A DNA stretch of 62,916 nt, the filler included, from Folioceros fuciformis (lineage: Eukaryota), in NCBI GenBank assembly GCA_049999805.1. It is 11 parts of 11 records of this genome, joined end to end, with 100 filler letters (N's around TTAATTAATTAA, not from the genome) between each part and the next. Parts side by side here need not be neighbours in the genome. Positions count along the whole stretch, not along the records: positions 1 to 4,423 come from JBNGIO010006423.1; 10 more parts are not named here. One strand, given 5' to 3'. Numbering within the stretch: the first letter of the stretch is position 1; each line of letters starts with the position of its first letter. The position numbers and the translations under genes were made by a program. This document shows, piece by piece, positions 1 to 56,398 of this stretch. Under the pieces are notes generated by a model, which ran no database searches, was not told the origin of the DNA, and saw nothing but the letters and a program-made list of their open reading frames with translations.

Positions 1-1
1 G

Positions 2-221
2 TGTTAAAATAGGGTTATCTTAATAAACCCTAATTACAGAATATTAGTTACTACGCCATTAAGTTAATTAATAGTTACCCTAATAGGTAAGATACCTAGG
101 GGTAAGACGTTTAGCAAACAACAACATAAAAACAATTTTGTACTCAACATTTTATCTTCTCTTTCAAGTTTAAGTTTACGTTCTTATATTTCCGCCTAAG
201 ATGATATTCTAAACCCAAACA
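2..221 (+). repeat. 5' LTR (~220 bp) of Ty1/copia element A
   Basis: Starts TGTT and ends AACA, immediately before a canonical PBS. AT-rich; contains AAACCCTAA at 25-33. Confidence 0.85.
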
Positions 222-234
222 TGGTATCAGAGCC
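222..234 (+). promoter_or_regulatory. Primer binding site (initiator tRNA-Met)
   Basis: TGGTATCAGAGCC directly after the LTR-terminal CA. Confidence 0.95.
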
Positions 235-434
235 TGAAGATCTTATAGGGCTAGATAGAGAATTTTATTCTCTTTAATCCCATCTAAAAAATTTTAGAAT
301 CTAATGTCTAGAAAAATAGATACAAAGTTCTTTAAATCTTAGACTTATTTTATTAAAGAAACCATCTAAACATAGAAAATTCTATGGGTTTCTTTAACAC
401 AAAATCATATATAGAATTAAGATAGGCAGCAAGA

Positions 435-923
435 ATGCCTAGAAAAAGGTTTAATGCTTGTAGAACTTGCCAGCCAGATGATTATTTAATCTCTAAACGT
501 CCTATTGTTATTAATTGTATTAATGACAAATTAGAACATTTAAGACTTATTAGGTCTTCTAGGAGGCAGTTTTTCTCAGCAGTTGCTGAGCATAATGAGA
601 AGATAGGGAGGCAAGCTTCATCACAAAGAAATATTAAACCTACAAGTACTAAGAAAGAATTAGATTATTTTAGATTCTTTAATCAAGTCAATTCTGAAAT
701 TCTTGATATTAACACTAAAATCGATAAGTTATGGTGTTTAGTTTCTGATATTCAAAGATCAATTACAATCCAAAATTCCAGGAATAATGCAGCAGATGAT
801 AGAAGAACTGCCTTAATTATTCAGACAATTTTATCAATAAAACATCAGACATCAATTATGAGTCCTCCATTTATAAATAAGGACTCAGAAAATTCACATT
901 TAAATTTTTTTATTTGGAAATGA
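435..923 (+). CDS. Extra ORF upstream of gag (ORF0), 162 aa, CxxC plus predicted coiled coil, function unknown
   Basis: ATG-initiated and open for 162 codons in AT-rich DNA. Has NACRTC and the heptad-like VNSEILDINTKIDKLWCLVSDIQRSI. Similar segments lie upstream of gag in other copia copies in this window. Confidence 0.65.
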   Translation: MPRKRFNACRTCQPDDYLISKRPIVINCINDKLEHLRLIRSSRRQFFSAVAEHNEKIGRQASSQRNIKPTSTKKELDYFRFFNQVNSEILDINTKIDKLWCLVSDIQRSITIQNSRNNAADDRRTALIIQTILSIKHQTSIMSPPFINKDSENSHLNFFIWK

Positions 924-968
924 GCAGCTTGAATAGCTAGCTCAGAAGCATATATCGATTCTCTCAAG

Positions 969-3900
969 ATGTCTTCTGTACATTTATTAAAAGAGAAAGA
1001 CCGCTTTGACGGGAGAGAGTTTGATATATGGCATTTTAGGATTAATTGTATCCTGAAAGAATTCCATTTAATGGCAATTGCAGATGGTTCAGAACCGAAA
1101 CCAGTAGTCGGAAGTAATAGACCTCCTACACCAGGAGGAACTATAAATAAGGCTACACAAAAAGATATATATGAATGGGAAACCAAAGATATGCAAGCAT
1201 TGCAAGTGTTGGTATCTGGCCTTACATCCGACATGATAAATCATATCAGGTTATGCAAGACTTCAAAAGAAGCTATTGAATTACTATCCGACACATATCA
1301 ATGCACGGATATGATGTCGGAGGTCGCAGCCGAACAGGCTCTTCATGGCCTAAAAATGCGAGAAGGTGACTCTATAGAAAATCACCTAAACAGATTCAGA
1401 AAACTTCGAGCTAATCTTGCAGCAGTAGGGACTACATTAACGGAGCATAAGGCTTCTATTACATTACTTGCTTCATTACCTCCCAGCTATACTCAATTCA
1501 GCACCGGACTACAGCAATCTGTAACTCTTACCCCTGCCTCGGCTGGGGTAGCACAATCCTCTAATCTCACTGTCCAGCGTGTAACAGCTGCACTCCAACA
1601 ATATGAACAAACGAAGAAGTCAGCAGGTTCTTCGGGCTCTAGATCAACGTCGAGAGCTATGTATGCTAACCAAGGCTTCTCACCCGGAGGCAAATTCACA
1701 CCTGGACGTGGTCGAGGAGGTAGATTCGGTGCTGGTAGGGGTAAGAGGCCTGATTCAAATCACAGCAGCAGTTCGAATCAGTCCACGAGAAAACCAGGTA
1801 CATGCAATTATTGCAAAAAACCTGGACATTGGGCTAAGGATTGTAGGAAAAGAAAATTCGATGAGGATAATGGCAAACTAAAAACTGAGGCTAACGTAGT
1901 AAGGAGCTCAACCCCTGGTATGCTTGCTGTTTGTTTAACATCCTCAGCTGCAGATAGATACAGCTGGTTCTGGGACAGCGGGGCATCAAATCATATGTGT
2001 TCAGAGAAATTAGTCTTTCAAGACTATGTGTCATCTCCACTTGGAAGAAAAGTTTACCTTGGCGACGATACATCCACAGACATTGTTGGATCTGGCACAG
2101 TACCTATGCGAATGGCAGATGGTAGCATTCTCAATTTGATAAACACCCTTCATGTTCCTGCTATAGCCAAAAACTTGGTTAGCAGCATGTGCTTAGGCAG
2201 AACTAAGCTCTACAGAACTATGCTCGAAGATGAGGCATGTTATATTTATAGGAAATCAAATATGCAAATTCCTGTTGCTATAGGTTTTGCACATAATGAC
2301 CTATATAAATTGAATATAACTCCACTGCTATGTGAGAATGATAGTATACCTGCAGCTCATAATTATGCAGTTTCCTCTCTGAATCCCAATTCATCTTCAG
2401 TCTTCACATGGCACTGCCATTTAGGGCATCCATGAACTGCAATCATGACCAGGATAGTGAAGGAACAGCTGGTCAGTGGTATGGAATCTATTAAGCACAT
2501 TCCAGAAAATTTTTGTGAAGCCTGCATCCATGGAAAACAAAGGAAACAGCATTTCGGTAGTGGAAAGGACAAGCCCAAAACTGAGCTATTGTCTCTTGTC
2601 CACTCAGATGTTTGTGGTCCTATGTCAGTACCCTCCATAGGAGGTGGCAGATATTTTATAGTCTATATGGATGATTATTCACATTTTACAGTTTTGTATA
2701 TCCTGAAGGCAAAGAGTGAGGTTTTCCAGACTTTTCAGGACTACTTAGCCTATGCAGAGCGCCATACTGGCAAGTTGTTGAAGTCTCTTCGCTCGGATAA
2801 TGGTGGCGAATACCTTTCCAATGAGTTTGAAGATTTCTGCAGACAGAGGGGAATCACTCGTTAATTGACAATCCCCTATAATTCAGAGATGAATGGGAGA
2901 GCAGAGCGTAAGCATAGATCGCTGCAAGAATCAGCCCTAAGTATGCTTCATCAAGCAGGATTACCTCTAAAATTTTGGGCCGAAGCTATTGCTACAGCAG
3001 CCTGCCTACAGAACATCCTCCCTACTGCTGCACTTGCTAAGGTGACACCCTTTGAGGCTTGGCACAATAGGAAGCCGGATGTTTCTTCATTGCGTATATT
3101 TGGTAGCCCTGCATATGCACATGTACCTCAACAGTTACGCAGAAAATTGCACACCAAGACTACACCATGCATCTTCATTGGCTATACATCTGGGATTCAC
3201 GGCTACAAGCTATATGATCCCCTCAAGCACAAGGTGTTTCATGCAAGATCAGTCATTTTTAATGAGAAGAGAGCCCTTCAACTTAAGGTTACAAATTCCT
3301 TACCTCATGAGACTCTCACCTCCTTTGAGGAGTTTCCCTTGGAGGATGATCTTGCAGGTACTGTGGAGGACGAGGAGGATGATACCCTATTAGTATCAGC
3401 TCCAGCTGCAGTGGGAGCACCATTTCCAGCAGGTCAGCAACTTCCATTAGATCAGCCATTCCCAGCTAGTCCCCAAGTCAATCAGCCAATTAATCAAGGC
3501 CATACCTCAGATAGTGATCTAGGTAGTGACCTTGAGAAGGGAAATATACCTGCAGATTTCATTGATGACTTTGTTGTTGACCAGCCTGTCGAACCTCAAC
3601 CTTATCATCCTGTCCTCTCACCACCTCGTCATCCAAGAGACAACTTGCAGCCAGTGGGAGCCTTGAGACGCTCCACTAGAAATCGACCTCCTAGATCCCT
3701 ATGGTCAGAAAAGCCTTACACAGATGCTGAATGGCAGTCCTCTAAGATCACACACACCCCAGCTGATCCCTCCAACTCACATTCAGAAGAAGAAAATGAG
3801 TCTGGACCTAGTCTAGAAAATCTAGAAGACCCAAGAGTTGAAGCCTTTCTTGTGGCCAATGATGGCCTTGATCCCTTGACAATCGAGGCTGCTAGAACTG

Positions 3901-4423
3901 GCCCTGATAAAGAGAAATGGGAGCCTGCAATTCAGTCCGAGTATAACTCATTAATGGATAATAAAACATGGGTACTAGTGGACAGACCTAAACGCAGAAA
4001 AATCATAAGCTGTAAATGGGTCTTCAAGCGAAAATTGAAGGCAGATGGCAGTATCGAACGATACAAGGCTAGACTATGTGCCAGAGGGTTCACACAAGTA
4101 CCTGGTGTTGACTATTTTGACACTTTCTCACCTGTGGTAAAACTTCAATCACTAAGAGTTATATTCGCATTTGTGGCATTCTACTCCATGTTTATCCACC
4201 AGATGGATGTCAAGACTGCCTTCTTGCAAGGTAATCTTGAGGAGGATATTTATATGTCTCAACCACCTGGTTTTATCAAAAAGGGACAGGAGGACAAGGT
4301 GTGCAAGTTAGTTAAAGCCATCTACGGACTCAAGCAATCACCTAGAGCCTGGTACCAAAGGCTGGACATATTTCTCATTGCTATGGGATTCAAAAGAAGT
4401 GAATCGGACTCTAATGTGTATAT
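969..4423 (+). mobile_element. Ty1/copia gag-pol (Gag, zinc knuckle, PR, INT, start of RT), two in-frame stops, cut by contig end
   Basis: CNYCKKPGHWAKDC; WFWDSGASNHM; WHCHLGH...CEAC; VHSDVCGP, SDNGGEY, NGRAER; CKWVFK, YKARL, QMDVKTAFL, YGLKQSPRAW. INT precedes RT. One frame throughout, with stops at 2433-2435 and 2862-2864. Confidence 0.97.
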
Positions 4424-4523
4424 NNNNNNNNNNNNNNNNNNNNNNNNNNNNNNNNNNNNNNNNNNNNTTAATTAATTAANNNNNNNNNNNNNNNNNNNNN
4501 NNNNNNNNNNNNNNNNNNNNNNN
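4424..4523. other. Artificial contig linker N44-TTAATTAATTAA-N44 (first of ten)
   Basis: Identical 100-nt six-frame-stop linkers also at 11560-11659, 17646-17745, 22207-22306, 26476-26575, 32518-32617, 35243-35342, 43376-43475, 56650-56749 and 60741-60840. Confidence 0.98.
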
Positions 4524-5789
4524 CATCAAGTCTTCCAATGCGCGCTGAAAGAATTCCTATTCCCTACATGCTCGTTTGGACACTGATTTTGGAGATTGGC
4601 TGGCAAATTGCAGCACACAAGCCATGAAAGCCCTAGCAAATCAAATTCCGGTCCTGCTGTTTGTTTGCAACATTTCTAGTGGCGAACTAGAGTTCTAGAT
4701 GCAAGATGGGACCGAACACGCTAAGCAAGATGGTGTACACCCAAATCACAGCTCCCTGCCTAGAGCTCGCAAGTGCACAACCGGACAGCAAATTTGACGG
4801 CTCTTGGTCATAACCAATCACATCTCTTTGTCGCCAGCTGTCTTGGAGTCAGTGATCACACGTTCATGGAGCAACACGGTGATTCTGCCTAGCCCTAGCC
4901 CTAGCTAGCCCTTGTCTGGCTTACATACTTGACGAAACACATATTGCTAGCAAGCCATGTAGGCTAGGCTTGCAGATCAATAGATCTGCCTGAGGTCTGG
5001 GCAGGCATGAACTTCATCCCGACATCATGGTAGGCAATACAATGCGGACAGAAAAACGGCCTCTCAATGCTTCTTAAGATCGGTGGTGTGGGGCCACCTT
5101 CTCCTAGTTGGCCCCATTTCAAAATTGGTTCGAATAAACCGAGCAGATTGTTTTGCCTCACAGGTATAGTACGTTAGCCGACAGATGCCGCGCTTAACAT
5201 AGAGGAAAATGGAACACTCTCCAGAGTTCCCCAGTATGGGATAATTTGTGACATCCAAGGTTGCCTTCATAGCCACATACACTTATCTGTGGTGATACCT
5301 GGTGACCACACTCCACAAAGGTGTCTCTTGTTTAAGCCTCGGCAATTGTATTTATACTTGTTAGAAGAGGCCCCTTCACCTCTTGTATTTTGACTCGCGC
5401 GATGGCCTCTCGGAATTGTGTTTAGACTTGTTTGCTGGCAACTGCCTGGTGGACTGACAGGTGCACGCTGGGTGTTTCACAGCATGGCCTCAAAGAACGT
5501 GGTGACACGGAATTCCCTGACTCCTGGATGATGCTGACCAAGGGCTCCCACATGAGGCGCTAGCTTCTTGTGTGTGGACAAAATGGAGCAAGAGGGCGTC
5601 ATTCTCAGAAGGCTGTCTGCTTTTCCTTTTCTTGCCTTGTGACGGCCCGTGCAAGCACTGGTGGCTTACAAAATTGCAGGCAGCTGCACTCATTGATCGT
5701 TGAAACAAGACTTGTGGCGGACTAACGCACGGCCACAAAGGATGTGGTGAGTCAGACATGGAATGCCCTATCCTACTACTGTCTGGCCA

Positions 5790-5934
5790 TTCCAAATATG
5801 GTGAACTGCAAGACGCAAGCCAGCTTTTTGACATCATGAGCGCAAAGGAGGTGGTGACTTGGAACACCCTGATAGCTGGGTATGCCCAGCAAAGGTTTGA
5901 ACACGAGGCACTTGTTGTGTACGAACAAATGGAG
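5790..5934 (+). pseudogene. PLS-class pentatricopeptide repeat fragment
   Basis: HSKYGELQDASQLFDIMSAKEVVTWNTLIAGYAQQRFEHEALVVYEQME matches the S/P motif consensus; ends at a 10-N gap. Confidence 0.85.
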
Positions 5935-7105
5935 NNNNNNNNNNTGCGAGCTTGGGGCAGGGCGCTGTGACTGGGTGCACATCCTCTTGCTCAGCGCGTT
6001 CTGTTCCATCTTGCATCTACAACTCTGTTTACGCCTCTATAAATATAGCAACCAAAAGCAGGACCGGGAATTTGATTTGCTAGGGGTTCTATGGCCCGTG
6101 TGCTGTAATGTGCCTGCCAATCCACAAAATTAGGATCCGAACGTGCGTGCAGCGAATCGGAATCCCTTCAGCTGACATTGGAAGACTTGATGGGAGCTGC
6201 ATTCATCAGTGAAGAGGTGCTAGGATGGCGGAGCCATCACAAGAGCTATTCGTGCAGCAGGTGGAGGATCCTTCCGAGCAGGCGGAGATGAACTCTTGTG
6301 TGTGGAAAATTATCCCACATCGGGAAACTGAGCAGCGGAGACACAACCCGCTAATATCATGTAACTGGCATGTAGAATTGAGTTCTGTTCTGAAAGGCAA
6401 GCTGAATGATTTGAACTTCACAGTGGTTCAAGTTTGAAACGGGGCCACCTGTTCTCAGGTGGTCCCGCCCGATGGACCTTAGATAGCATTCGGATGCCGT
6501 ATGTTCCCTTTCTCCCACATCATCCTGGTGAGACTGATTGACACCCAAGGCACAGCACCCTGCCTCGGGCTCGCAAGTGCACAAGCGGACAGCAAATTTG
6601 ACAGCTCTAGGTCAAAATCAGTGACATCTCTTTGTCGCCAGCTGTCTTGGACTCAGTGATCACACGCTAATGGAGCACCGCGTTGATTCCACCTAGCCCT
6701 AGCCCTTGTCTAGCGTACGTACTTGATTTCCCTTCCTGATCAACACATTTTGCTAGCAGGCCATGTAGGCTAGGCTTGCAGATCCAGAAATGTGACAAAG
6801 GTCGAGGCAGGCATAATCTTCATCACATAACGTGGGAGGTAATGCAATACGGGCAGATAGATCTGTCTGAATGCTCCTCGACGTTGTTGGTGTGGGGCCA
6901 CCCATTGCTGGTCGACCCCATTCCAAAATGAAGAGAAATGTTCAGTCGACTGATTTACTTTGCCGTGTACGAGTAAAGCAAGATACTGCGTACAAGATAA
7001 TGGAATGTGTAACACACTCCTGAGTTCCCCAGTATGGGATAATTTGTGACATACAAGGTTCTCGTCACACCCACAACACTATTTGTGGTGATATCTCGTT
7101 CCAAA

Positions 7106-9403: not shown

Positions 9404-10312
9404 ATCCTGTCCGGCAAAAGCAGCCCTGATAGAGGTAGACAAAGCACAGACATCCCTGCAGTTCCTTGTAGCAAAGATAGCCCAGTTTTAGATAGTGAGG
9501 AGAGGAGAAATGGGAAAGGAGGGTGGACGGTACCGAGCGCTGCAGGCCCACTGGATCATGTGCAGCTGGAGATTGTGGAGGCGGAGGGGATTGAAGTGGG
9601 TCCTGTATTACCTGCGAAGCGGGCTCCCAGAGAAGCAGCTTCTCCCAAGCCTCTCCTTGCTGAGGAGACGGGAGGCAGATTGGCCAGGGTCAGAATTCTT
9701 CTGGTGGAGGATACTGTGGTGATGCAGAGAATAGCCAGTCAGTTGCTAAGGAAGGAGGGGGCCCTGGTCAACGTTGCTGGTAATGGTAAAGAGGCTGTGG
9801 AGATGGTAGCTGAGCTTGTGGCTAGTACTTCAGCAGCTGAGGTGCCCGGTGAGCCCAGTTGCCCCCAAAACGTCTTCGACCTGGTCCTAATGGATTGTCA
9901 GGTATGCGTCTCCTTGCTCCTGGGAAGGTGAAAAGAACTCATTGTGGTGATGAGGGAAGCAGGATGGTGTGTTGTGATGTGGCTAACCATTGATTGCAAC
10001 GTTCTTGGTAACGTTCAGATGCCTGTCATGGACGGCTACACAGCCACAGCGAGGATAAGGGAGATGGAAGGCAGCGGCCACCTCCCCATCATTGCACTCA
10101 CAGCACATGGAGGTATGGAAAGCGACCAACAGAAGTGCATGGACGCAGGGATGGACGCGTACATAAGCAAGCCCTTAAACATGGACACTCTCCTGGACGC
10201 CATGCACCAGCTCAACATTGTGACCAACAAGAGAGTCCTGAACCCATGCGCAGATTCCTCTGCATATGGGCTGCAAGCTTTCAGGGAAAGGCTGAGGTCA
10301 AAACCAAGCTAG
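9404..10312 (+). CDS. 3' part of a hybrid sensor histidine kinase (AHK/CKI1-like): linker plus receiver domain; exons 9404-9901 and 10019-10312
   Basis: RILLVEDT...FDLVLMDCQ|MPVMDGYTATARIRE...LPIIALTAH...CMDAGMDAYISKPL, with the conserved D-D-K residues. 117-nt GT-AG intron (9902-10018) with a CTAAC branch motif. Frame is open back to the gap at 9402. Confidence 0.9.
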
Positions 10313-11559: not shown

Positions 11560-11659
11560 NNNNNNNNNNNNNNNNNNNNNNNNNNNNNNNNNNNNNNNNN
11601 NNNTTAATTAATTAANNNNNNNNNNNNNNNNNNNNNNNNNNNNNNNNNNNNNNNNNNNN

Positions 11660-12580
11660 GAATTCCAGACCTTGCTCGACAGGAGTCTCATTGATCACAG
11701 GAGGACGTCGAGGGATCATCCACAGGCCGATGGCCTGGCAGAAAGGCTAGTGCAGACCTTCAAGGATGCACTAAGGAAATACTGCATTACTGTGGAGCCC
11801 AAGTGTTGGGATGAATTGCTCCCTTACATCGTGTTGGGGTACAGGGTCAATGTGCAGGCAGCTCTTGGAAGTTTCAGTCCATACTTTTTGTTATTCGGAC
11901 GCAACGCAGTGTTGCCGAATGTGGTGAAGGACACCTACTCCATCCCTGTTGACTGGAGCAAAGATGCAAATGTGTGCTTGGCACAGGTTCAAGCCAGAGC
12001 AGAAGTATTTCAAAGAATTCTTCCCATGGCTATGGATAATTTGGCTGTGGCCCAGCATCGGGACCAGCTGAGGTATGCTTATACGCGGGGGGGCTCGTGG
12101 AAGCCCAAAGGCCGCAAGTTTGCATCTGGAGATTACGTGTACTTGCAGCGCAGGCCTGCAAGCACGTTAGATGTCAGCATAGGAAGGCTTATCCTGCGAG
12201 TTGTCCAGGTTGGTGAGCAAGGTGTGGTTGAACTTGAAGGAAGAGATGGCAGAAGGTGCAAGGAACACATGAAGCACTTGGCTCCATGCCATTTGCCTGA
12301 TCTGGATACACGAACTGTGCCTCAGACCTGGACGCCACCAGCAGATTTGCCCTGTGAGGAGTGTGGACACACAACTGACGACGAATTCATGTTGCTATGT
12401 GACAGGTGTAACCGTGGTTACCATCTGTTTTGCCTCAAACCGGCACTGGACAGTGTTCCAGAAGAAGAATGGCTATGTGAGCACTGTAATGTGCTAAGTG
12501 TGAACGTGGCTCTTACAGAAGGTGATACTGAGGTTGTCTTAAATTCACATACGTTGGTACGTAGTTGTTTGTTTTCCTAG
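11660..12580 (+). mobile_element. Ty3/gypsy integrase C-terminal half fused to a PHD finger
   Basis: HPQADGLAERLVQT, WDELLP, SPYFLLFGR, FASGDYVYL, then CEECG...MLLCDRCNRGYHLFCLKPALDSVPEEEWLCEHC (C4HC3 with the conserved Trp). Confidence 0.93.
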
Positions 12581-16899: not shown

Positions 16900-17745
16900 G
16901 TCCTAAACCAAGCAGGGACAGACCACAAGAGCTCATGAAGAGAGGACCTCCAAGAGCTCACGAAGAGATAGACTGACTCCCAAAGTGAATGACTCCCTCC
17001 TCCTACAGGCTCACCTAATCTTATAGGAGCCTCTCTCTCTCTCTGACTTCACCTCTCTCTAACTTTAGAAAAATTATTTTAATAGGACCACTAGCCTAGC
17101 CGGCTATCACCAGCCACTTATTTAGACTTCTAGCACATCCTGCCACCAATGAGCTCCTGGCCCTACCACCACAAGGATCTACCACCTCTTAGACTATCCT
17201 GAGACTTCGGAGGATGTCTGATCTTCAAAGATATGCGGACGCCGCCTCTTCTTTGTTGGATGGCTGCCCGCTAAGTCTTCCCCTGCAACTGTTCACCCTT
17301 GGTGGCTGAGCCAGCCTCGAGGGGAGGAGTATGAGAAGTGGGAAAGATAGAGAGGAGGTGGGAGGCAATGGGATCAGCAACTGGAACCTGGCCTGAAAAC
17401 GGTAGCTTATTCAGCGGGATCAGCTTCCAGCCGAAATGGTTCCTCGGCCATGGAAGATTGACCCCGAGGTGCTGGAATAGGCCCCGAACTAGGAGGAAAA
17501 GAAAGCAGGTGAAACAGAGTTGAATTGGAATCTCTGGAATTAAATCCAGAAAAATAGGGGTAAAAATAGAAAAGGGGAAATTAGGAAAATAAAAAGAAGG
17601 AATGCGGGTACACGTATCATTACGTATTAAATACGTATCTCAACANNNNNNNNNNNNNNNNNNNNNNNNNNNNNNNNNNNNNNNNNNNNTTAATTAATTA
17701 ANNNNNNNNNNNNNNNNNNNNNNNNNNNNNNNNNNNNNNNNNNNN

Positions 17746-20700: not shown

Positions 20701-22034
20701 AGCTAACAACGTGTAGCCCTTTCGTTGTGCTAGGTGTGACTCAAGTGGAGGTGTTGACCTCCTAGGCTCATTAGCCTTTTTCTTTCGACACTCAGATTCA
20801 TAGTGTCCAGGCATGAGACACTAGTTACACGGCCCTTTTTTCTTTGGTGGTCCAGATGAAGGAAACTTCTTTTTGTAAGTGTTATTGCTGCTGTTGCTGT
20901 TGTTTGACTGCCAGGGCTATCTTGGTGGTGGTCTCCGAGGGCCCCTGTTAGTATAGAGCACCCTCTTGGAGGCCTCTCCTCTGTGGGAGTTGCCACCACG
21001 CCTGGTGGTATGTGTGGACTCCTCCTCGAGAAGAGCCCCAATTAGGTCAGAGAGAGTGATCCTTGCTGGTTGACCTGCAGTTGCAGCTGTAGATGCTACT
21101 CTCAAAGTAGAGCTATAATTACTTACAAATGTTCAGTAGCTGTCTGGCAATGACAGGGCCACTGAGGCTTGAAGCACGTCAATTTGGTGCCGCAGGATAC
21201 AAGTTTGGTTCGTAGTGCTCGAAACTTGATCACATGTTGTTCCACAGATTCATGTTCCTTCATTTGGTAGTTATAGAAGGCCCTTGTGGCCTGGACGATT
21301 GAACTTCCGTTTGTGACTTGGTAAACTTGAGTAAGTGAGTCCCATACCGCTTTTGTTGACTCAGCATCTTGTGTATGCTGCATCATTGAAGCATCCAGTG
21401 CTGACTGGATAACGCCAAGCGCCCTGAGGTCTAACTTGGCCCATGCCTCTTGGTCTGCAAGTGTTGCAGTTTGTGGTGGTTTGGGAGTTGCTCCGCTTAC
21501 AACACCCCACAAATCATTCTCTCGCAGTATGGTTTTGACTCTCATTGCCCAAATGTCAAACTGTGTGCCAGAAAATCTGTCTTTTTCTTTGAAATCTATC
21601 TTTAGATGGTGCACTGTTGTGTTATGAGTGACTGTATTTGGATGTGCCATTGTGGACACAACTTGTGCTGCATGTGCTGCCCTTGTGGCTTGTGCTAACC
21701 TGGCCGACCTAGTATTATATGCACTTGTAGCTGCTAGTGCCAATTGTGCAAGCTGAGCTAGTTGAAGTGCTGTTGGGGCAGGTACAGTTGTACTGGATTG
21801 TGCAGATGTCTGTTGTTCAGATGTATCTGACAGGTGCTGAGTATCTACAGTGAGGGGTTCGGACAAGTTTGTGCCCTCAGAGTCTTCCTCTGTGCCACGG
21901 CCAATACCTCTGCCAGTGCCGTGCCTTCTAGTGTTGCGGAAATTATTGTATCCATGATTGCCACGGTTTCCTCGTCCACCATGTGACATGCGCACTTTAG
22001 AAGGGATGAGCAGACTTCGGTGCAAGGGCTTCAA
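17746..22034 (-). mobile_element. Ty1/copia element B, degenerate gag-pol (Gag to start of RNase H)
   Basis: FKEKDRFSG (Gag), GHYESECRKKK, WFLDSGAS, SDNGGEY, CKWVSK/FKARL, HMDVKTAFL, YGLKQ, TRPDLAHSVG, FCDVDWAS; several stops and frameshifts. Confidence 0.96.
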
Positions 22035-22206
22035 GTTGTTCGAAGTCTCTATTGCACTCTTTCAAGGCTGTCATCATCTTCCGAACCACTGGAGCAATTG
22101 GTTCTTTCAATCCTTCGAAACCATAGCATTCAGGAGGTGATCTTTGTTGTTGTTGGGATTTAATGATCAAATTGTGCACCTTCAAGGTTAATGCATCAAT
22201 TTTGCT
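21997..22206 (-). CDS. ORF0 homolog upstream of gag in element B (5' end off contig)
   Basis: Frame open to the contig edge: SKIDALTLKVHNLIIKS...IAPVVRKMMTALKECNRDFEQLEAL, resembling TKIDKLWCLVSDI of ORF0 at 435-923. Confidence 0.5.
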   Translation of the reverse strand, partial: SKIDALTLKVHNLIIKSQQQQRSPPECYGFEGLKEPIAPVVRKMMTALKECNRDFEQLEALAPKSAHPF

Positions 22207-22306
22207 NNNNNNNNNNNNNNNNNNNNNNNNNNNNNNNNNNNNNNNNNNNNTTAATTAATTAANNNNNNNNNNNNNNNNNNNNNNNNNNNNNNNNNNNNNN
22301 NNNNNN

Positions 22307-24399: not shown

Positions 24400-26475
24400 T
24401 CAATGAAATGCCGCTGTTTCCGCTTTGAACTCCTCGAGCAATTCATGTAGGTTCTTCATACCATGCACCTTGTTATCACGGGTGCGAACATTGACCTGCT
24501 CAGTGCTTTCTTCCCTCTCACCGACCACTAGAATGTAGTTGAATTGGGCTAGTTGCGCTTCCCGCACCTTCTTATCAATAGACCGATATGAGATATCCAT
24601 TTCGACATAAAATCCTGCTTCGTGGATGTGGTTGCGGACTCTCCTCGCGTACTCCACGAACTTCCTTGATATAGAGCACACAATGGCCTGACGAGGGCTG
24701 ACCCAAAAAGGCCACTTGCCAACGTAGTTCTCAAGCAGAATTGCAAGCATTCGTTCCACAGATCCAAGAATTGCCCTATGGATCATGACGGGCCTTTCCT
24801 TTCTAGACTTGTCATCTGTGGAGTAGGTCAAGTTGAATCGCATGGGCAATTGAAAGTCTAGTTGAATTGTTGCACACTGAAATTTCCTTTTCAGCGCATC
24901 AAGCACTGTGATATCGATCTTGGGCCCATAGAATGCACCGTCCCCCTCATTCCTCTCCCATGGCTTGTTTAGACCGTTGAGGGCATCCGCCAAAGCCTTT
25001 TCTGCCCGCTCCCATACCGCAAGCTCTCCAAGGTATTTCTCGGGTCTTGTTGACAGTTGAAGTTCGAATGTGAAGCCGAAAATGTCGTAGGCATATTGCA
25101 AGAAGTCTAGAACTCCCTTCACTTCGTCGAGTATTTGGGACTCCATGCAAAAGATATGTGCATCGTCCTGCTGAAACCTCCTAACTCTTGTTAGACCTGT
25201 CAACGCTCCACTCTTCTCGTTGCGATGGAGCACTCCAAAGTCGGCTAGACGCAATGGCAACTCCCTATAAGATCGTACCCTATGGCCAAACATGAGGCAA
25301 TGACCTGGGCAATTCATTGGTTTCAACCCATATTCTTGCTTTTCGACCTCACAAAGAAACATGTTCTCCTTATAGTTGGCAGCATGGCCAGATGTTTCAA
25401 AGAGCTTCATATCAAACATATTTGGAGTTATGACCTCCTCGTAGCCACGCTTTCGGTACTCTGCGCGAATAAACTCCATGAGCTTATTGTATATCCTAGT
25501 TCCATGAGGCAAAAAGAAAGCACTACCTGGGCTTAGTTCATGGAAGTGGAACAATTCCTGCTTCACACCAAGGATTCTGTGATCCCGTTTCTTTGCCTCT
25601 TCGATGGCCTCAAGGTACTCCTTCAGCTTCTTTTGATCAGGATATGAGATCCCATAAACGCGTTGCAGCGTCTCTCGGTCTGCTCTACCTCTCCAGTAGG
25701 ATGCGGATGCCTTCGTTAGGGCAAAAGCCTTTGCAAATGCTGTGGTGGGCACGTGAGGCCCTCGGCAAAGGTCAACCAAAGGCCCGCACCTATACACCGT
25801 GATGGTCTTATCCTCTGGCAATTCTTGAATGATTTCAACCTTGAACGGGTTATTAAAGAAGATGTCGAGTGCTTGTTGTCTCGTCACTTCTATGCGCTCG
25901 AAAGCTTGCTTTTCTTGAACAGCTTTGTCTACTTGGGACTTGATCTCCTCAAAGCGCTCTTCGTTTAGGGTGACGTCCCCATAGAAGGCATCATAGTAGA
26001 AACCCTCGGTTCTTGTTGTGCAGGGTCCAATACATAATTTGCAGTCGTACACAATCTCCAATGCCTGCCCTAGGATGTGAGCACTAGAATGCCAAAACGT
26101 GTCTCGTCCTTCTTTGTCTTCGAAAGTAAATATTTTAAGCTGACAATCTCCCTCCAAGGGTCTTCCTAGGTCCCAAAGGACACCATCAACCTCCGAAATG
26201 AGAGCGGCCGTTGCCAATTGTTTGGAAATTTGCTTGGCAATGTCGAGGGGCGAAGTTCGCCATTTAACCCCATCTCTCACGGAACCATCACGAAGTGTGA
26301 TTTTGATCGGGTCCCCAGCAATTTCATTCAACCGTTCTTGGGCAATACGCTGAATCTCCTCAAATTTGGAGATCCTCTTCTTTTGACTTTCGGTTAACGC
26401 TCCTGCTGATTTACTAAACCCTAAACCCGAGGACTTGGAAATCCTCTTCTTTCTAATCTTGCTCACATCCAATCT
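24400..26475 (-). CDS. ThrRS: Cytosolic-type threonyl-tRNA synthetase, intronless and uninterrupted (~744 aa when joined to 22354-22512)
   Basis: TGS domain; editing HSSAH and DLCRGPH; catalytic KPMNCPGHC, RNEKSGALTGLTRVRRFQQDDAHIFC, GAFYGPKID, QLDFQLP, HRAILGSVERM; anticodon domain KKVREAQLAQFNYILVVG. Confidence 0.97.
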   Translation of the reverse strand, partial: RLDVSKIRKKRISKSSGLGFSKSAGALTESQKKRISKFEEIQRIAQERLNEIAGDPIKITLRDGSVRDGVKWRTSPLDIAKQISKQLATAALISEVDGVLWDLGRPLEGDCQLKIFTFEDKEGRDTFWHSSAHILGQALEIVYDCKLCIGPCTTRTEGFYYDAFYGDVTLNEERFEEIKSQVDKAVQEKQAFERIEVTRQQALDIFFNNPFKVEIIQELPEDKTITVYRCGPLVDLCRGPHVPTTAFAKAFALTKASASYWRGRADRETLQRVYGISYPDQKKLKEYLEAIEEAKKRDHRILGVKQELFHFHELSPGSAFFLPHGTRIYNKLMEFIRAEYRKRGYEEVITPNMFDMKLFETSGHAANYKENMFLCEVEKQEYGLKPMNCPGHCLMFGHRVRSYRELPLRLADFGVLHRNEKSGALTGLTRVRRFQQDDAHIFCMESQILDEVKGVLDFLQYAYDIFGFTFELQLSTRPEKYLGELAVWERAEKALADALNGLNKPWERNEGDGAFYGPKIDITVLDALKRKFQCATIQLDFQLPMRFNLTYSTDDKSRKERPVMIHRAILGSVERMLAILLENYVGKWPFWVSPRQAIVCSISRKFVEYARRVRNHIHEAGFYVEMDISYRSIDKKVREAQLAQFNYILVVGEREESTEQVNVRTRDNKVHGMKNLHELLEEFKAETAAFH

Positions 26476-26575
26476 NNNNNNNNNNNNNNNNNNNNNNNNN
26501 NNNNNNNNNNNNNNNNNNNTTAATTAATTAANNNNNNNNNNNNNNNNNNNNNNNNNNNNNNNNNNNNNNNNNNNN

Positions 26576-29500: not shown

Positions 29501-30660
29501 CCTGAACTGCTGCTTGAATAGTTAGTTGCATTTTGTGAACTCACCAACTGTCCGCAGGCGTCTGGCAGAGAAGTAAGAAGGCTTTTAGCAGCCTAAACTT
29601 CTGTTAAAACAGTGCCACAGCAAGCCAAGTTAGCCCTCAAGGTCCTAAACTTGTGTATATAGCCCTCGATGGGCTCATAGTCCTTCATCCACAAGTTGAA
29701 AAAATCACGGTATGTATGCACCATCGAGGCTGAGCTTTTGTCTTCATAGATGAGTTTGAATGCCTTCCACACAGCATTAGAGGTGGCTGCACCTATTGTA
29801 TGAGGCATCACCAGGGAGGCAATCAGTATTGATCGAGCCCTCCTATCCTTCCGCTGCCAAGCTAGGACATTTTCTAGTGGGGATGCAGGACAGGCTTCTG
29901 AGCCGTCTACAACGCCCATCAACTCATGCTCATCAAAGATCTGCGTTACCCTCATGGACCAGATAGCATAATCGGTCCCATTAAACCTGTCTTTGTCCCT
30001 GAACTCTATTTTGAGAGGAACGACACTAGGAGTTGCTGTGAGGATAGGGGCAAGAGTGCCACTTGATATATTTGCTAAGATAGTGTTACTCACCAACCTG
30101 AACTGCGACCTATGCTCAAGAAGCAACCTAGACTGCACTGCTTGAGGAGAGAAATCAAAAGGTGAGTAATCCACAAACTCGATGTCAGAATCGTGAAAAA
30201 GAAAAGGCAAATCAGCAGTGTTGTCCCCCTTAGGTTGCATATGACATGGATTCTCAGAGTATCGAAGAACAATGCCCAGACATTGAGACCTGTTTGTCAA
30301 GACTCAAAGCAGAAAGATGATCCTGAAAAATCTCATGAACAATCTAGATAGATTCAGAAAGGCAGTCAATCAACTCCTTTTGAGCGTGCAGGCGTTGCAG
30401 ATTGGTGACAGGGAGGTGGACCAAAGATCTGGCAGTGACGCGGGTTGAAGATAGTGTTCTTCGCGTTCTCGCAAAGGGGCTAGCAATTAGGTCGAATCTC
30501 AAACGGTTGTGCGCTCGTAGAACAACTAGCTCTCAGGCCATGGCGCTGAACAATGGAAGGCGGTGTTGGGCGTGATGTGCACTTTTCCTCCTCTCTGCAC
30601 TCGGGGCAAAGCAGGCCGGAAACGGCAACTGGACGAGGCGGGATTAAGGTCAACAGACGA
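26576..30660 (-). mobile_element. Ty1/copia element C, degenerate gag-pol with leader remnant
   Basis: FRDKDRFNG (Gag), WHCRLGH...CDSC, HSDICGP, TDNSGEY, CKWVFR/YKARL, HQLDVKTAFL, YGLKQ, IYVDD; many stops and frameshifts. Confidence 0.95.
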
Positions 30661-30664
30661 CTAT

Positions 30665-31905
30665 ACAATGCATGCAAATTATTGAAAGCGCTTTATGGAC
30701 TCAAACAAAGCGCTATGGAGTGGTACTCTAAGTTAGATGAAGCCTTAGAGGCCTTAGGGTTACCAAACTAGACTCCAATAGCAATATCTATATTAGAAAA
30801 TAAGATGGTTGTTTTATTCTACTTGCTGTATATGTAGACGATATTGTTCTAATGTCTAACTCCAAAGCCATGGTAAAAGAGACTAGGTCAATGCTTTCGA
30901 AGCATTTTGCTATGACCACTTGCAGGGATTTATCTTATTGTTTACGCATTCAAATAGTTAGACACAGAGAGTCTAGAAATATATTTATACATCAATCCAA
31001 ATATATTCAAGAAGTTTTAACTAAGTACAAGATGCAAGACTCTAATCCTATATCCACACTAATGGAAGTTAACCTTAAGCTGATTAAGGCAGATCGAGAC
31101 TCAACTCCATATCTTGACACGAATGGGGTACCCTACTCTTTAGCAACTGTTGAAAGCCTTATGTACTTAATGGTCTGCACTAGACCAGACCTTGTATTTC
31201 CAGTGGGAGCACTCTCTCAGTTTTTATCATCTCCCACACAAGAACATTGGAAGGCTATTAAGCGCATATTTAGATATCTTAGATCTACTTCGGATATGGG
31301 ACTCCTATACCAGTCCTCTACTAAGCAAGATGAGCACCTTCAGCTTCAAGGATATAGTGGTGCTGATTGGGTAGGGGACAAGGACGTTAGAAAGAGCATA
31401 AGCAGCTATGTGTATTTGGTCGAAGGCACAGCCACGAGTTGGAGCAGCAAGCGGTAACAGATGATTGCTCTAAGCTCCACGGAAGCAGAATATTGCTCCT
31501 TGACACATGCTTGCAAAGAAGGACTATGGCAACTCCTACAACTATCGGAATTAGCAGAAGCTCAACATCTTCCAAGATCCCTCTACTGTGACAACCAGGG
31601 AGCTATCTCGCTTACCTATGGTGCTAAGTACCATGCGCGTACCAAACACATAGAGGTACAATTTCATTTTATCCAGAAAGTAGTTTAGGACGGAAAATTT
31701 GGAGTCCTATATTGGCCGACAAAACTAATGACAGTTGATATCCTTACCAAAGCCCTCAGCTCGGCTAAATAAACACCAGCAGCACTGCGCATCAATGGGC
31801 TTAAGAAGACTATCTCAAGCTTTCTTTAGCAACAATTAATACTCATGTATTCTAAATATAAATCCTAAGTCTAATATTAAGTCACTAAGTGAGAGTGTTA
31901 CAATA
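30665..31905 (+). mobile_element. Copia RT/RNase H 3' fragment with PPT and start of 3' LTR
   Basis: LYGLKQSAMEW, YVDD, CTRPDL, GYSGADWVG, ALSSTEAEY, YCDNQGAI, HARTKHIEV; purine-rich AAGTGAGAG followed by TGTTAC at 31896. Confidence 0.9.
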
Positions 31906-34449
31906 ATAGTATCCGTAGCATTAGTTAGGGCACGGTTCACTTATACTAAGCGGTTGCGTTCGAAGGCACCGCTTTATCATAACACATAACCTATACAGAC
32001 CACGAAAGTAATCGATTCTCTTGCTTGCACGCTGATCGGTCAGGGATGCATTGAACGTTTTCATATAAATGCAGTGACTACTCCTGCGAGGAAATCGCGG
32101 GGCAACACCAACTTACGTCTCCTGCTACATACTAAAGACAGCCGCAAAACGTAGATTGAAGATCGATCTTGTGCCGTGTGTGACGTATGCCGGGAGGCGC
32201 AGAGCATATTGCTCTGCTGTCGGCTGCAGTTTTGCTACTGAATTGGGCGACGGCAAGGAGGAGGCGAGACACACTAAATTTCACGTCCAATGTATAAATG
32301 ATCTGCCAAACAAACAAACACGGACGAGGCCGAGGCCGAATGGGCACACAGCAGTCGCAGGTTCTAGACAGGGATACAAACAGTCTCAGACTGTCGGTGC
32401 GCGGGTGCGTGGAGGTGTGGCAGTCGGACTCCCATCCACCGGAGCAACGCCAGCGAGAGACAATTCACAAGTGTCACGGCATAGCAAGGAAAGGCAAGGC
32501 AAGGCAATGCGACGCAGNNNNNNNNNNNNNNNNNNNNNNNNNNNNNNNNNNNNNNNNNNNNTTAATTAATTAANNNNNNNNNNNNNNNNNNNNNNNNNNN
32601 NNNNNNNNNNNNNNNNNCTCCACCACCCTCCCTCAAGGCGCCCTCCAGCCCGGCCACTGCAGCCACAGCCTCGAGAGCGCCCCTCCCACGGCAGCCACAG
32701 CCACAGCAAGATCCCGGACTAAGGCGCCCCCACCTCGGCCTCGGCCAGCGACAGAAGATGCAAATTCGGCCCTGCCGGACCCCAATTTGCCCCAGCCCCT
32801 GCGTCCAACATAGTCGCAGCTCACGGAAGCCCTCCCTGGCATACATAACCCGGATTCAAGATGTCTCTACATATCTCCACCATGGCCAATTCTGGCATGC
32901 GCTATTCGCCATTCTGCCATCACAATTATGCGCGGCTCGCTGTTGCTACTCGCCCGCCTTTCATCGCCCTGCACGCCACCAGAATGCAATGTCACCTTTC
33001 ACAACGCCGCAGCATCGCATCCCTCGCATCCCCGCCAGCCCCACCCCAAAGTGACGCTACCAGCGACTGAGCTCGAAAGATCGCAATACTAATAGGGCTA
33101 CCAACCAGGGCACACATACAAAACCTCACTGCACTTATGCGACCCCGCCTCCTAAACGAATTCTACCTAATTAACATAATAACACCATCCATAGTACCCT
33201 TTTTTCGTTTACCATAGAATATCTTATATAGACAACATGTTTTAACTTTATTTAAAGGAAGAGATGGAAAGACCCAATCTGCCTATCCCGAATCAAAGAA
33301 GAGCAAAGGGCCAAGAACCGGAGGCTCTTATGCAAATTACAACATAGCCTATTACACTAAGAGTGTCATAGTTGGAGACGATCAAGGGCCTACTCCAAGC
33401 CAATTCTCACCATACAAATCACACTAGGCAACACTCTACATGGGATGATGGAAACCCACTATCTCGAACCAAGACAATCATAGAGGAAAGAGGGAGACAC
33501 ACCCTATTTGAGCCATGGTATAGGCATTAGCAATCTTAATAAACCTTTAGCACACTTCTTAATAAGCCTTGAAAAATCCTTTCCATGAGTCTCTAAGCCT
33601 TAATGGCAAGGCCAATAGAGGTATATTCCTTCTACAAAGATGAGTACTTATGCACCTTGCTAGTCATGCATCCCTCAACCACCCGTTCTCGAGAGTTGAT
33701 GGAGACATGCCTATGGACCAATCGCCAAGTAGGATCCTAATAGCCTATACATAGGGTTGTCGAGCAACATGTGTTCATGCAAGGTAGTCGGAAAGCAAAA
33801 TCAAGAAACATGTTCTACAACATGTGCTCCTAGAGGGTAGTAAGGAAGCAAAATCAAATGTAAGGTATTAGACATAAACACTGCTCAACAACATTAACAA
33901 GAGGGTAACAAGTCTGTAAAGTTGCACTTTCCTTCTAATAACAGACACGTAACCCTATTAAGCAGCATGTATAAGAGAGCTGTAGCTGGAAGCTAGCAAG
34001 AAAGGTAAATTGGATATGAGGCAATAGGCACACAACACTAATCAATTGTAATAAGAGAGTAGGCAACATCAAACTTGCTTACCAACAGCAACAAGAAGAC
34101 AACATGAAAGCAAAATTGGATGCAAGGTTGCAAACGGATAATGGTGCCCAACATCATGGCCAAAGGAAAGCAAAATTAGATCTAAAGCGACAAGCACGCA
34201 ACGTTACCTATCACCATGGCAACAAGGAAGCAAAAATAGACTTGCCTACCAGTAGCAAGATAAAGAAAAATATATACTTTATTATAAAAAAAGGTGGAAA
34301 AACTTATCTATCTTAAAAGAGGAAAACAAAACCACAAAAGCAACGTAGCTCAAGAGACTATTCCTCAACACCACCTTACATTAAGCTACCAACCAAGCTA
34401 GAAGTTGAAAGGGTCTACTTAGTATCATGATTACTATCACTAATGCTAT

Positions 34450-35242: not shown

Positions 35243-37865
35243 NNNNNNNNNNNNNNNNNNNNNNNNNNNNNNNNNNNNNNNNNNNNTTAATTAATTAANN
35301 NNNNNNNNNNNNNNNNNNNNNNNNNNNNNNNNNNNNNNNNNNTGTATTTTGTGCGATATGCCTGCATGGTCGTGTTTACAAAATTTACAGTTCAAGACTT
35401 CCATACAGACTCGGGAAAACATTCCCAATTTCTCAGACCTGATTTCTATGTTGATCATAGAGGAGAAAAACCTAGGCGAGGAATCATCCTCTAAGCCTAA
35501 GGAAAACTCTGAGCAGGCCTTCTACTCTGGCAGAGGCAGAGGTAGAGCCCAAGGTGGCAGAGGGCAAAGAGGTGGCAGAGGTCGGAATCCCTACCAAAAT
35601 CAACAACAGAATCAGGAGTCCCAGTACAAGAGTACACGTGGAAGAGGAGAAAATTCTCGAGGCTGGGGGAGTCAAAGAGGACGTGGAAATCAACAACAAA
35701 ATGATGCAAATGCAGACAATAGTGGTTGCTGGACTTGTGGTAGGTTAGACCACTTCGAAAGAGACTGTCCAAGGAGAAATCAAGGCAACAGGAGGCAGCA
35801 GAACAATTATGCCTCTAGCAGCAGTCAGAATGACTCAGAAAACTTGTTTGTCATGCAGCATATGCTTAACTCTGTGTCTGCTAATGGATCCAACAATGGT
35901 GAGATTGTGTGGTATGTGGACTCAGGAGCTTCGAACCACATGACATGCCATGGGGAGTGGTTCAAAGAAATGCAAGTGCTTGACAAACCTGGATATGTAG
36001 AAACTGGAGATGACACAACACATGCAATTGTGCATACAGGAACTGTACCTCTGAAGATGCAGGATGGCAAAGTGAAGTGCCTGGTAGATGTTCTTCACGT
36101 ACCCAACATCACAAAGAACTTGGTGTCAGTTGGGCAGATGGTTGAGCAAGGACTGCAGGTTAGATTTACACCTGCAGGACTCTTTGTTGAAGAGTGCAAG
36201 AAAGGCGGTCGCCTGATTGCTCAAGGACAGAAGGTTGGACGGATGTTCACCTTGAACGTGGAGGTTCCTAAGCTGAAGTCAGCCATGTTTGCGAAGGGTA
36301 CAAGGGTAGTGACAGACCTAGAGATGTGGCACAAACGCATTGGACATGTAAATGTGCAGAAGTTGAAGTCCATGCAGCATCAGAAGGTTGTCACAGGCAT
36401 ACCCAAGCTTACAGAAAATGGACTGCAAGGTATATGTGAAGCATGTCAACTTGGGAAACAGCCTAGGAATGCGTTCCCCCATGACAAACATGTCAGCAGA
36501 TGTGTGTTGGATGTTGTGCATTCAGATGTATGGGGTCCTACACAGACTGCATCAATCGGAGGCTGCAAGTACTATGTGACCTTCATTGACGACCACACAA
36601 GGAAGGTGTGGGTCTATTTCATGAAAGAAAAAAGTGAAGTGATCACTCATTTTCATACTTTCAAGGCGATGGTTGAGAAGCAGACAGGTAGGCACATCAA
36701 ATGCCTAAGATCTGATGGAGGGGGAGAGTACTTCTCCAGAGAGTTCAGCAAATTCTTATCAGAACAGGGCATTCAACGGCAATACTCATGTCGTTATACG
36801 CCACAACAAAATGGAGTTGCAGAGCGCAAGAACAGGCACATAGAAGAAGTGGCGAGAGCCTTGATGACAGAGAAGAAGATGCCTCACTACTATTGGGCTG
36901 AAGCTGTAAGCACAGCAGTGTACATCATGAACAGAACTTCCACAGCAGCGGTGCACAGTGTAACACCGGAGGAGAAGTTCACAGGGAAGAAACCTGACTT
37001 GTCACACTTAAAGGTATTTGGTTGCATTGCTTATGTCCATATTCCGGATGAGTTGCGGACTAAGCTTGATCCAAAAGCAGAAAAGTGTGTCTTCATTGGG
37101 TATTATGTTACACAGAAAGGATACAGGTGCTACAATCCCAGTACACGGACTATGAGAGTAAGCAGAGACGTAGTCTTTGATGAAATGGGTAGCTGGTACT
37201 TTGAAGTACAAGGAAGTAGTGTAGCTGATGTGCTTGAAACTGAGGTAACAAGCAATGCAGGTCAACAATCACAAGTGTTGAGTGGACCGCAAGCGTCATC
37301 AAACTCGACAAATGTTCAGAATCCATGGAGTGGCAGGTTGCGAGGTAGTGTGAGTCCTACGAGCTCCACAGCTGTGTCTCGCAAAGGGAAGGAAAAAGTC
37401 CAGGATTCAAAGATACCAGACCTAAGTGCAGGTGCGGATGATTCAAGCGACTCTGAGCAGAGCTTGGATGAGGAATTCGGTGTACCGAAAATCGAAACAC
37501 CTAGTGCAAAAGAGGTTCAATCAGCCCCTGGAAATGGTTCAATCCCACGGAGATCTGGAAGGCAGAAGGTTCCAATACAGCGGTTGACCTATGATAGCTA
37601 TGTAGCTAGGCACCATGCCTATATGGCAAAGGTTGTACAGGATGTGGAACCAAGAAGCTTTGAAGAAGCTATTGGAGACACAAAGTGGGAACATGCTATG
37701 GATGAAGAAATGAATGCGTTAAATCAGAATGCAACATGGGACCTAGTACAACTACCTGAAGGCAAGAAACCAATAGGTTGCAAATGGGTGTACAAGGTCA
37801 AACACAACGCAGATGGTAGTATCAACAGGTACAAGGCAAGGCTTGTGGCCAAGGGATATGCCCAG

Positions 37866-43519: not shown

Positions 43520-43740
43520 GCTCTGATACCATGTAAATTATAGATGTATAAGCATTGGATTGGATTGACTAGAGCCTGAAGGCTTAGACATATATATCAC
43601 TTGTATATTCAAAAGAATGAATAAAATGAATGGAATACAAAAAGATCTCACTTGTGTTCATTAAATATCAAATAAACCCTAAATGAAAAGGTACGAAAAT
43701 AATAACTAGGCTAAGCGAATAACAGCTTAACCCGCTAACA
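43520..43740 (-). repeat. 5' LTR (43532-43740) plus tRNA-Met PBS (43520-43531) of a minus-strand copia
   Basis: GCTCTGATACCA (reverse complement of TGGTATCAGAGC) abuts TGTAA; the far end CGCTAACA reads TGTTAGCG on the minus strand. Confidence 0.85.
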
Positions 43741-56205: not shown

Positions 56206-56398
56206 TGTTGGAAGTAACCCCGTTAGGGTTAGCTTCTTATAAACGTTGCAGCTATTAGGTGGTTTAATAGCTAATTATGAAAGGTCATGACTCTTGGAGA
56301 GTTTTTTGTATATAAGCACTTTATTATTCATAAATAAAATAACATGAGAACAACTTTGAGTATGTTAGATCCTCAAATGTTTCACATGGTATCAGAGC
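56206..56398 (+). repeat. 5' LTR (56206-56386, 181 bp) plus tRNA-Met PBS of another copia nested in element F
   Basis: TGTTGG...TTCACA then TGGTATCAGAGC; interrupts the post-integrase region of F. Confidence 0.9.

Follow-up and report, generated by a model that had tools for sequence, protein, structure and literature searches.

Extra reading frames in plant LTR retrotransposons

Extra open reading frames (eORFs) in plant long terminal repeat (LTR) retrotransposons have been described as frequent, heterogeneous and mostly orphan (PMC7264820, PMC6317226). In the parts of the survey of Neumann et al. (2019) that bear on Ty1/copia, eORFs of 582 elements are assigned to 45 unrelated groups, and the conclusion drawn there is that they are either fast-evolving or independently acquired and that their function is doubtful (PMC6317226). 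A candidate of this kind is described here from Folioceros fuciformis (GenBank assembly GCA_049999805.1). It is an open reading frame of 162 codons, ORF0, in the leader of a Ty1/copia element (element A) that lies at the start of a stretch of 62,916 bases, hereafter the window. The evidence comes from the window, from public protein and contig libraries and from contigs of public sequencing runs. ORF0 is interpreted, with moderate confidence, as a genuine family-specific extra protein-coding ORF in the leader of copia element A, and as having been functional until at least recently. It fits the 5′ sense-strand extra ORFs catalogued for plant LTR retrotransposons, as a short orphan in an unusual host superfamily.

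Among the classes set out in that survey, eORF-5′F is the one that ORF0 resembles, being a forward ORF upstream of the polyprotein, outside it, and with an orphan product (PMC6317226). The survey considered ORFs of at least 250 codons only, so that a frame of 162 codons is missed by it, and ORF0 passes the exclusion of tandem repeats (at least three monomers, more than 150 bp) that applies to the class (PMC6317226). The sole eORF named as a feature of a copia lineage in the relevant sections of the same paper is the 3′ one of SIRE (PMC6317226). This env-like ORF (eORF-3′F) is the one well-described extra ORF of copia elements and has a heterogeneous sequence, but it is much longer than ORF0 and is located downstream of pol, ahead of the 3′ LTR (PMC6317226, PMC4093653, PMC7264820). 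A full-text literature search, which left the per-lineage eORF positions of PMC6317226 outside its scope, returned no described copia 5′ ORF or "ORF0".

Retrosat2 of rice also carries a frame called ORF0, located between the 5′ LTR and gag-pol, to which no function is assigned in the account of Gao et al. (2012); homologous elements retain it at this position, with a sequence divergence much above that of gag-pol (PMC3485330). Retrosat2 differs from element A in that it groups with RIRE3 and RIRE8 (of the gypsy type according to a title cited there), that its LTRs exceed 3 kb and that it is present in many copies (PMC3485330). No similarity between the two frames was found, a phmmer search with ORF0 of element A having given no match whatever. 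In Ogre elements, ORF1 likewise has the sense orientation, lies 5′ of gag and is a hallmark of the lineage, as exemplified by the 1527-bp ORF of Medicago Mtr70. However, these giant elements belong to the Tat/Ogre branch of Ty3/gypsy, are primed by tRNA-Arg, and have an ORF1 about three times longer than ORF0 (PMC2533021). Similarity between Ogre ORF1 and ORF0 was not found either, and the homology of the ORF among elements that marks an Ogre-type lineage gene was not detected in the leaders of element A and of three related elements of the window, B, C and F.

LINE-1 RNA is bicistronic, with ORF1, a short spacer containing in-frame stops, and ORF2, which is translated by unconventional termination-reinitiation. 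Element A would be comparable in having a first cistron for a small basic protein, which in LINE-1 is a coiled-coil RNA-binding one, a short spacer that contains in-frame stops, and a downstream cistron out of the reach of scanning. LINE-1 differs in being a non-LTR element without homology to element A.

ORF0 in the leader of element A

The leader of element A is 735 nt long and contains 29% G+C (71% A+T). ORF0 occupies positions 435-923 (+) and runs from an ATG in the context gcaagaATGc, with A at -3, to a TGA at 921-923. It is followed by a spacer of 45 nt (924-968, +) with a second in-frame TGA at 930-932, and by the ATG of gag at 969, in the context ctcaagATGt (again A at -3), with the conserved Gag start eight codons further downstream. 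ORF0 thus shares the frame of gag, and two TGA codons stand between them. An earlier note on this DNA had reported an intact 162-aa ORF ending 45 nt before the gag ATG, and this was borne out together with its coordinates.

Such a frame is hardly expected by chance. No ATG-initiated ORF of at least 162 aa was obtained in 5000 dinucleotide shuffles of the leader (234-968), the largest reaching 118, and a stop-to-stop frame of at least 165 was obtained in 1 of 5000; in a repeat of the test restricted to the sense strand, none of 2000 shuffles matched the length of ORF0. The base composition by codon position gives a chi-square of 28.7, a value reached by 0.17% of 3000 sets of stop-free random codons of the same composition (mean 10.3). 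The value for gag is 21.6, so that the periodicity of ORF0 is as strong as that of gag, and the leader ahead of ORF0 shows no three-base periodicity (5.8). No tandem repeat underlies ORF0, the only arrays being two of 21 nt with about two copies each, and all 11 codons that are one transition away from a stop (TGG, 2; CAA, 5; CAG, 4) remain intact, in spite of the prevalence of transitions among the differences between copies. Judged by its length, its periodicity, the A at -3 and the tandem in-frame stops, ORF0 does look protein-coding. Rfam returned just two sub-threshold, snoRNA-like matches, on the opposite strand.

The product would be a basic protein of 19 kDa (pI 9.9, 27 K+R versus 16 D+E). 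The description "CxxC plus coiled coil" given in the earlier note is a possible one for it, and is weakly matched by what was found. A single CxxC is present at residues 9-12, with C28, H35 and C101 scattered elsewhere; a complete four-ligand Cys/His set of a known zinc-finger family is absent, and there was no match in Pfam at E up to 1. The best heptad signal, at residues 79-106, is equalled by 3% of 2000 shuffles. AlphaFold2, run without an alignment, predicts helices at residues 19-63, 73-113 and 119-142 with low confidence (pLDDT 52), and the prediction of a two-copy complex scored 0.02, weighing neither way on self-association.

Upstream, the leader from 234 to 434 (+) contains two short upstream ORFs, starting at ATG 304 (12 codons) and ATG 384 (13 codons). 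The ATGs at 201, 221, 304 and 384 open just 3 to 18 codons each, and altogether 14 ATGs precede that of gag. The starts of the upstream ORF at 304 and of ORF0 match in 13 of 14 nt (303-316 versus 434-447, AATGYCTAGAAAAA), and this near-identity may reflect a small duplication of the start region.

The host element can be assigned from its other parts. The first contig of the window (1-4423), in which ORF0 is located, contains the 5′ LTR of element A only, the 3′ LTR being beyond view. The 5′ LTR (2-221, +) is a 220-bp A+T-rich repeat with TG...CA ends, which opens with TGTTAAAAT and whose final CA directly abuts the primer binding site (PBS; 222-233, +). The PBS, TGGTATCAGAGC, is an exact match to the initiator tRNA-Met type, the 12-mer being presumably the complement of the 3′ end of tRNA-iMet. 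With at most one mismatch it occurs at four sites of the window, versus 0.34 expected. In most Ty1/copia lineages, the primer is given as the 3′ end of complete tRNA-Met in the survey's treatment of priming (PMC6317226). The gag-protease-integrase-reverse transcriptase (RT) region (969-4423, +) forms one frame, which is broken by stops at 2433-2435 and 2862-2864 and cut within RT by the end of the contig; because of these two stops element A is a defective copy. Three of its four in-frame stops, those of the spacer included, are TGA. Pfam searched with 969-2435 returned PF14223 (E 9.8e-27), PF22936 (E 6.5e-20), zf-CCHC (PF00098; E 3.2e-05) and PF13976. An integrase-like stretch at about 2445-3400 precedes RT motifs near 4000-4423 (frame read by eye); in a sister fragment, the RT gave a match to PF07727. 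The assignment of element A to Ty1/copia is thus supported by its Gag and protease domains, the order of integrase before RT, the TG..CA LTR and the tRNA-Met PBS. A reading of TGA as a sense codon fusing ORF0, gag and pol was rejected, as a TAA also breaks pol and the position of the TGA in pol is variable in relatives.

Leaders of related elements and other copies of the family

According to the earlier note, a segment similar to ORF0 occurs at the same position in three divergent elements, namely B, C and F. Their Gag N-termini are 30-40% identical to that of A, and the Gag start K(E/D/G)xD(R/K)FxG is indeed common to all four, element E starting differently, as had been stated. In element B, the end of an upstream open frame is visible over 69 codons (21997-22206, -), after which the leader is cut by the linker at the contig end, so that the frame is open to that end and its N-terminus lies beyond 22206. 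The stop of this frame is separated by 7 nt from an ATG at 21989, and neither its length (p = 0.054, 2000 shuffles) nor its periodicity (p = 0.55) is significant. Ahead of its conserved Gag start, element B also has an R/G-rich extension of about 130 codons in the gag frame (21594-21989, -), in which an R/G-rich stretch is followed by one rich in A, Q and L. Open frames as long as the whole one that leads to the conserved Gag start (156 codons) arise in 0.8% of 2000 shuffles. Shorter in-frame open stretches before the conserved Gag start were also observed in C and F.

The leader frame of element F (53026-53397, +) extends over 123 codons from stop to stop, without an ATG near its start, and contains a CCNC...KRP motif that begins 262 nt downstream of the PBS of F (52795-52806). 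Its length is again marginal (p = 0.053, 2000 shuffles; periodicity p = 0.10), it ends at least 245 nt before any ATG in the gag frame, and the gag of F itself has an in-frame stop. A homolog search with this frame, Pfam included, was empty. The leader of element C is represented by decayed pieces in two frames (30344-30692, -), one at 30480-30692 with CPEC...SRP and the other at 30344-30532 ending in a stop. It is cut at about 30700 by the RT of another element, and its longest sense frame is within chance (length p = 0.27, 2000 shuffles). Element E (52275-52544, -) stands head to head with F and has almost no leader left, and is hence uninformative on leader ORFs.

Sequence comparison did not raise the similarity of these leaders above chance. 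A tblastn search of the window with ORF0 returned ORF0 itself only, the next match (E 0.075) lying outside any leader. Smith-Waterman alignments among the leaders (10 pairs, 2000 shuffles each) gave p values of at least 0.12 throughout. The best tblastx match among five leaders (E 0.056) fell in a frame of A that is not ORF0 and contains stops, and the smallest of 24 global alignment p values was 0.016, uncorrected. The similar segments proposed for B, C and F are thereby not sustained. Hence no significant similarity links the leader ORFs of A, B, C and F, and homology of the other three to ORF0 cannot be shown from these sequences, although the frame of A itself is real.

The CxxC followed by (K/S)RP, which the earlier note had pointed out in A, F and C, does exist. 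Written as CxxC-x(0-16)-[KS]RP, it has just three matches when the window is translated in six frames (125,828 residues), each of them in the sense leader of one of these elements, and in A it begins 226 nt after the PBS. The pattern was, however, chosen after seeing the sequences and written from A, F and C themselves, so that its match count is no test. A second motif, (K/R/L)(I/L)D-x5-(V/I), follows the first by 66 to 86 residues in A, F and C and is also present in B; its distance from the stop is 54 to 56 residues in A and B. A second pattern, written from A, B and F, has three matches overall, and as both patterns are post hoc, these counts are suggestive only.

Other copies were found in the sequencing runs, two of which (X1 and X2, both DNA, from one sample) contain the element; a third, X3, is from the same sample. 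Run contigs that match the window exactly or almost so have a depth of 33-36, and the similarity is 80-92% for a few others, of lower depth. A contig over the LTR (2-209) has a depth of 58, about twice the 33-36 of the internal contigs, and two different flanks precede position 2, at which the LTR begins. Among the differences listed, the near-identical copy of X1 and X2 departs from the window by seven fixed differences in gag (five synonymous and two not) and by one in the LTR (215), with none within 435-923. This pattern suggests recent selection on the family for gag function, and what the two runs represent may be a sister copy or a different individual. Differences between copies are dominated by C>T and G>A. 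In run X3, the differences from the window are almost exclusively C>T (186) and G>A (191), the pattern expected of a bisulfite- or enzyme-converted library. They affect about 77-89% of cytosines (or guanines) over the LTR, leader and ORF0 and about 42-53% over gag 1471-1811, and the LTR and leader of A may accordingly be little methylated.

The diverged material in the runs consists of fragments of two to three broken copies. A 136-nt piece of ORF0 (646-781) with GT..AG ends is missing in X1 and X2 contigs, X3 skipping 137 nt; of the two joints seen, one has GT..AG ends. The form without this piece may have arisen by simple deletion in a dead copy, or it may derive from a reverse-transcribed spliced RNA. 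The piece was also considered as an intron and rejected as such, its removal ending ORF0 after 70 codons and bringing gag no closer to the 5′ end.

The window is composed of 11 separate contigs joined by linkers of the form N44-TTAATTAATTAA-N44, located at 4424-4523, 11560-11659, 17646-17745, 22207-22306, 26476-26575, 32518-32617, 35243-35342, 43376-43475, 56650-56749 and 60741-60840, and adjacency across a linker therefore carries no meaning. The joins cut elements A, B and D and an element at 56750. Another short-LTR element lies inside the pol of F at about 56150-56649, with the same PBS (56387-56398) and a leader that the contig end cuts after 250 nt, and a further PBS is found at 43520-43531 (-), 44 nt from a contig start. 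Between the elements, Pfam identified pieces of host genes, among them a class II aminoacyl-tRNA synthetase core and an anticodon-binding domain, a PHD finger and a response-regulator receiver domain; the coordinates of the pieces between elements are 24403-25479 (-), 12026-12577 (+), 9950-10309 (+) and 5758-5970 (+). One frame among them resembles, by eye, a pentatricopeptide repeat.

What the leader frame may be

The most economical account of the intact frame takes ORF0 as a genuine extra ORF of the family, intact at the insertion of copy A, and the genomic RNA as bicistronic in effect. Several observations weigh against ORF0 as a functional family-specific gene, and some of them, namely the orphan status, the base composition and the broken diverged copies, speak for the unlikely alternative that the frame has no function and stays open by neutral persistence or accident, the leader acting as a cis-acting RNA in priming, packaging or translation control. 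ORF0 is an orphan in every library searched. It matched no Pfam family, and no relative was found in a library of 5.8 billion clusters (searched at "near" lengths only), among PDB sequences, in metagenome and viral contigs, or by phmmer among 1.84 billion representatives at E up to 0.001, so that these searches do not show conservation. The best score in the ESM Atlas was 0.87 (recognition 1760), below the useful range, and its syntaxin-like rows are leads only. The third-position composition of ORF0 (T 46%, C 7%) departs from that of gag (T 34%, C 18%), ORF0 being in composition like the non-coding LTR and leader. The frame is also broken in the diverged copies by the 136-nt deletion and by a 1-nt deletion at 905, and only one intact ORF0 was seen, within a defective element. 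Finally, a first cistron of 162 codons should hamper the translation of gag. With a single intact ORF in a single defective copy as the evidence, what has been found is a lead to be followed genome-wide and not a result.

Some of these points lose weight on inspection. The diverged copies also carry at least six frameshifts in gag, and are therefore dead copies that do not discriminate between a functional and a functionless ORF0. For the Gag of A, 24 relatives were found outside the window at E up to 1e-10, and even the top-ranked share no more than 28-30% identity with it over most of its length. The lineage of A is thus poorly sampled, which makes the absence of ORF0 relatives weaker evidence than it appears; nothing like ORF0 was present in the seven of the 24 Gag relatives whose sequences were inspected. 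A search of metagenome and viral contigs with a Gag alignment was empty. The RNA of the leader (234-968) folds better than its shuffles (z -4.0, 20 shuffles), as a cis-acting leader would, but pieces of the leader (-2.5, -2.4, -0.4) and of gag (-2.4, -4.7, -1.0, -0.6) have similar z-scores, so that the leader is not singled out by RNA structure. A functionless frame must also account for a length whose chance at such composition is about 1 in 5000 or less and for a periodicity equal to that of gag.

That ORF0 belongs to an accessory gene conserved in the copia lineage of A, B, C and F, diverged past ordinary alignment, is unlikely in the light of the comparisons made, although several features are in its favour. 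Long leaders and one type of Gag start are common to all four elements, B and F each have a longest sense frame of marginally unusual length, and the upstream frame stops 45 nt (A) and 7 nt (B) before an ATG in the gag frame. In addition, the CxxC-[KS]RP motif is confined to the leaders of A, F and C in the sense direction, beginning 226 and 262 nt after the PBS in A and F, the second motif follows it by 66 to 86 residues, and extra ORFs are noted for fast divergence where the two papers discuss their evolution (PMC6317226, PMC3485330). Against this stand the alignment tests, none of which exceeds chance (the best tblastx match is in the wrong frame and the smallest global value is uncorrected), the post hoc origin of both motifs, and the state of the frames themselves: F has no ATG, C is broken, the N-terminus of B lies past the contig end, the periodicity of F and B is non-significant, and the frame of F ends at least 245 nt ahead of any gag-frame ATG. 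The accessory ORF proposed earlier is consequently reasonable as a family-specific feature of A, whereas its conservation in the lineage drew on by-eye alignments that fail shuffled controls. Its fuller form, a copia clade with a fast-evolving 5′ accessory gene (CxxC-basic N-terminus, amphipathic helix) as first cistron and gag reached by termination-reinitiation or shunting, would be more unlikely still; if true, Ty1/copia would thereby have its first 5′ accessory gene, whose product might bind RNA or act against silencing.

The remaining alternatives concern the relation of ORF0 to gag. ORF0 could be translated as a regulatory upstream ORF, kept open because its translation tunes gag or the fate of the RNA, its peptide sequence being irrelevant. 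Its 5′-proximal position, the short distances to the next ATG in A and B, the 14 ATGs ahead of gag and the lack of sequence conservation across elements agree with this. However, regulatory upstream ORFs are usually short, 162 codons kept open at 71% A+T would demand strong selection against stops everywhere, and the periodic composition suggests a constraint beyond the avoidance of stops, which makes this explanation improbable. Least probable of all is that ORF0 is the former N-terminal part of Gag, severed by two nonsense codons in a decayed copy. The shared frame, the two further in-frame stops in pol, the excess of TGA among the stops, the predominance of C>T and G>A changes and the in-frame extension of about 130 codons in B would all be accommodated. 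Yet sharing a frame is a 1-in-3 coincidence, and two stops in the 16 codons of the spacer versus two in about 1150 codons of gag-pol are very unlikely under uniform decay. Gag moreover has its own ATG, with A at -3, close to the conserved start, and the copy in X1 and X2 has no difference at 921-932 among those listed, which is weak evidence in the same direction.

If ORF0 is a genuine coding frame of the family, the genomic RNA would be functionally bicistronic, with ORF0 as the first long cistron after two to four very short upstream ORFs. Given the 14 ATGs and ORF0 ahead of it, gag would be made otherwise than by plain scanning, be it by termination-reinitiation over the short spacer, by shunting or internal entry, or from a shorter RNA. 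The protein might act as a fast-evolving nucleic-acid-binding or particle-associated helper, a role preferred because the basic charge and the amphipathic helix fit it; this is the weakest step, a matter of pure conjecture, and as such counts against the interpretation as a whole. Alternatively, it may counteract silencing by the host or play another part that is typical of orphan proteins of viruses, the orphan status and apparent fast divergence being also compatible with a factor directed at host defence.

Ty1/copia elements are usually described as having no genes besides gag-pol, the 3′ env-like ORF of SIRE being the known exception. A 5′ gene, if real, would add an accessory function to the superfamily. 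Surveys with a cut-off of at least 250 codons would have overlooked such genes. If ORF0 is real, it also poses a concrete translation problem, since gag would have to be expressed from behind a cistron of 162 codons and 14 ATGs.

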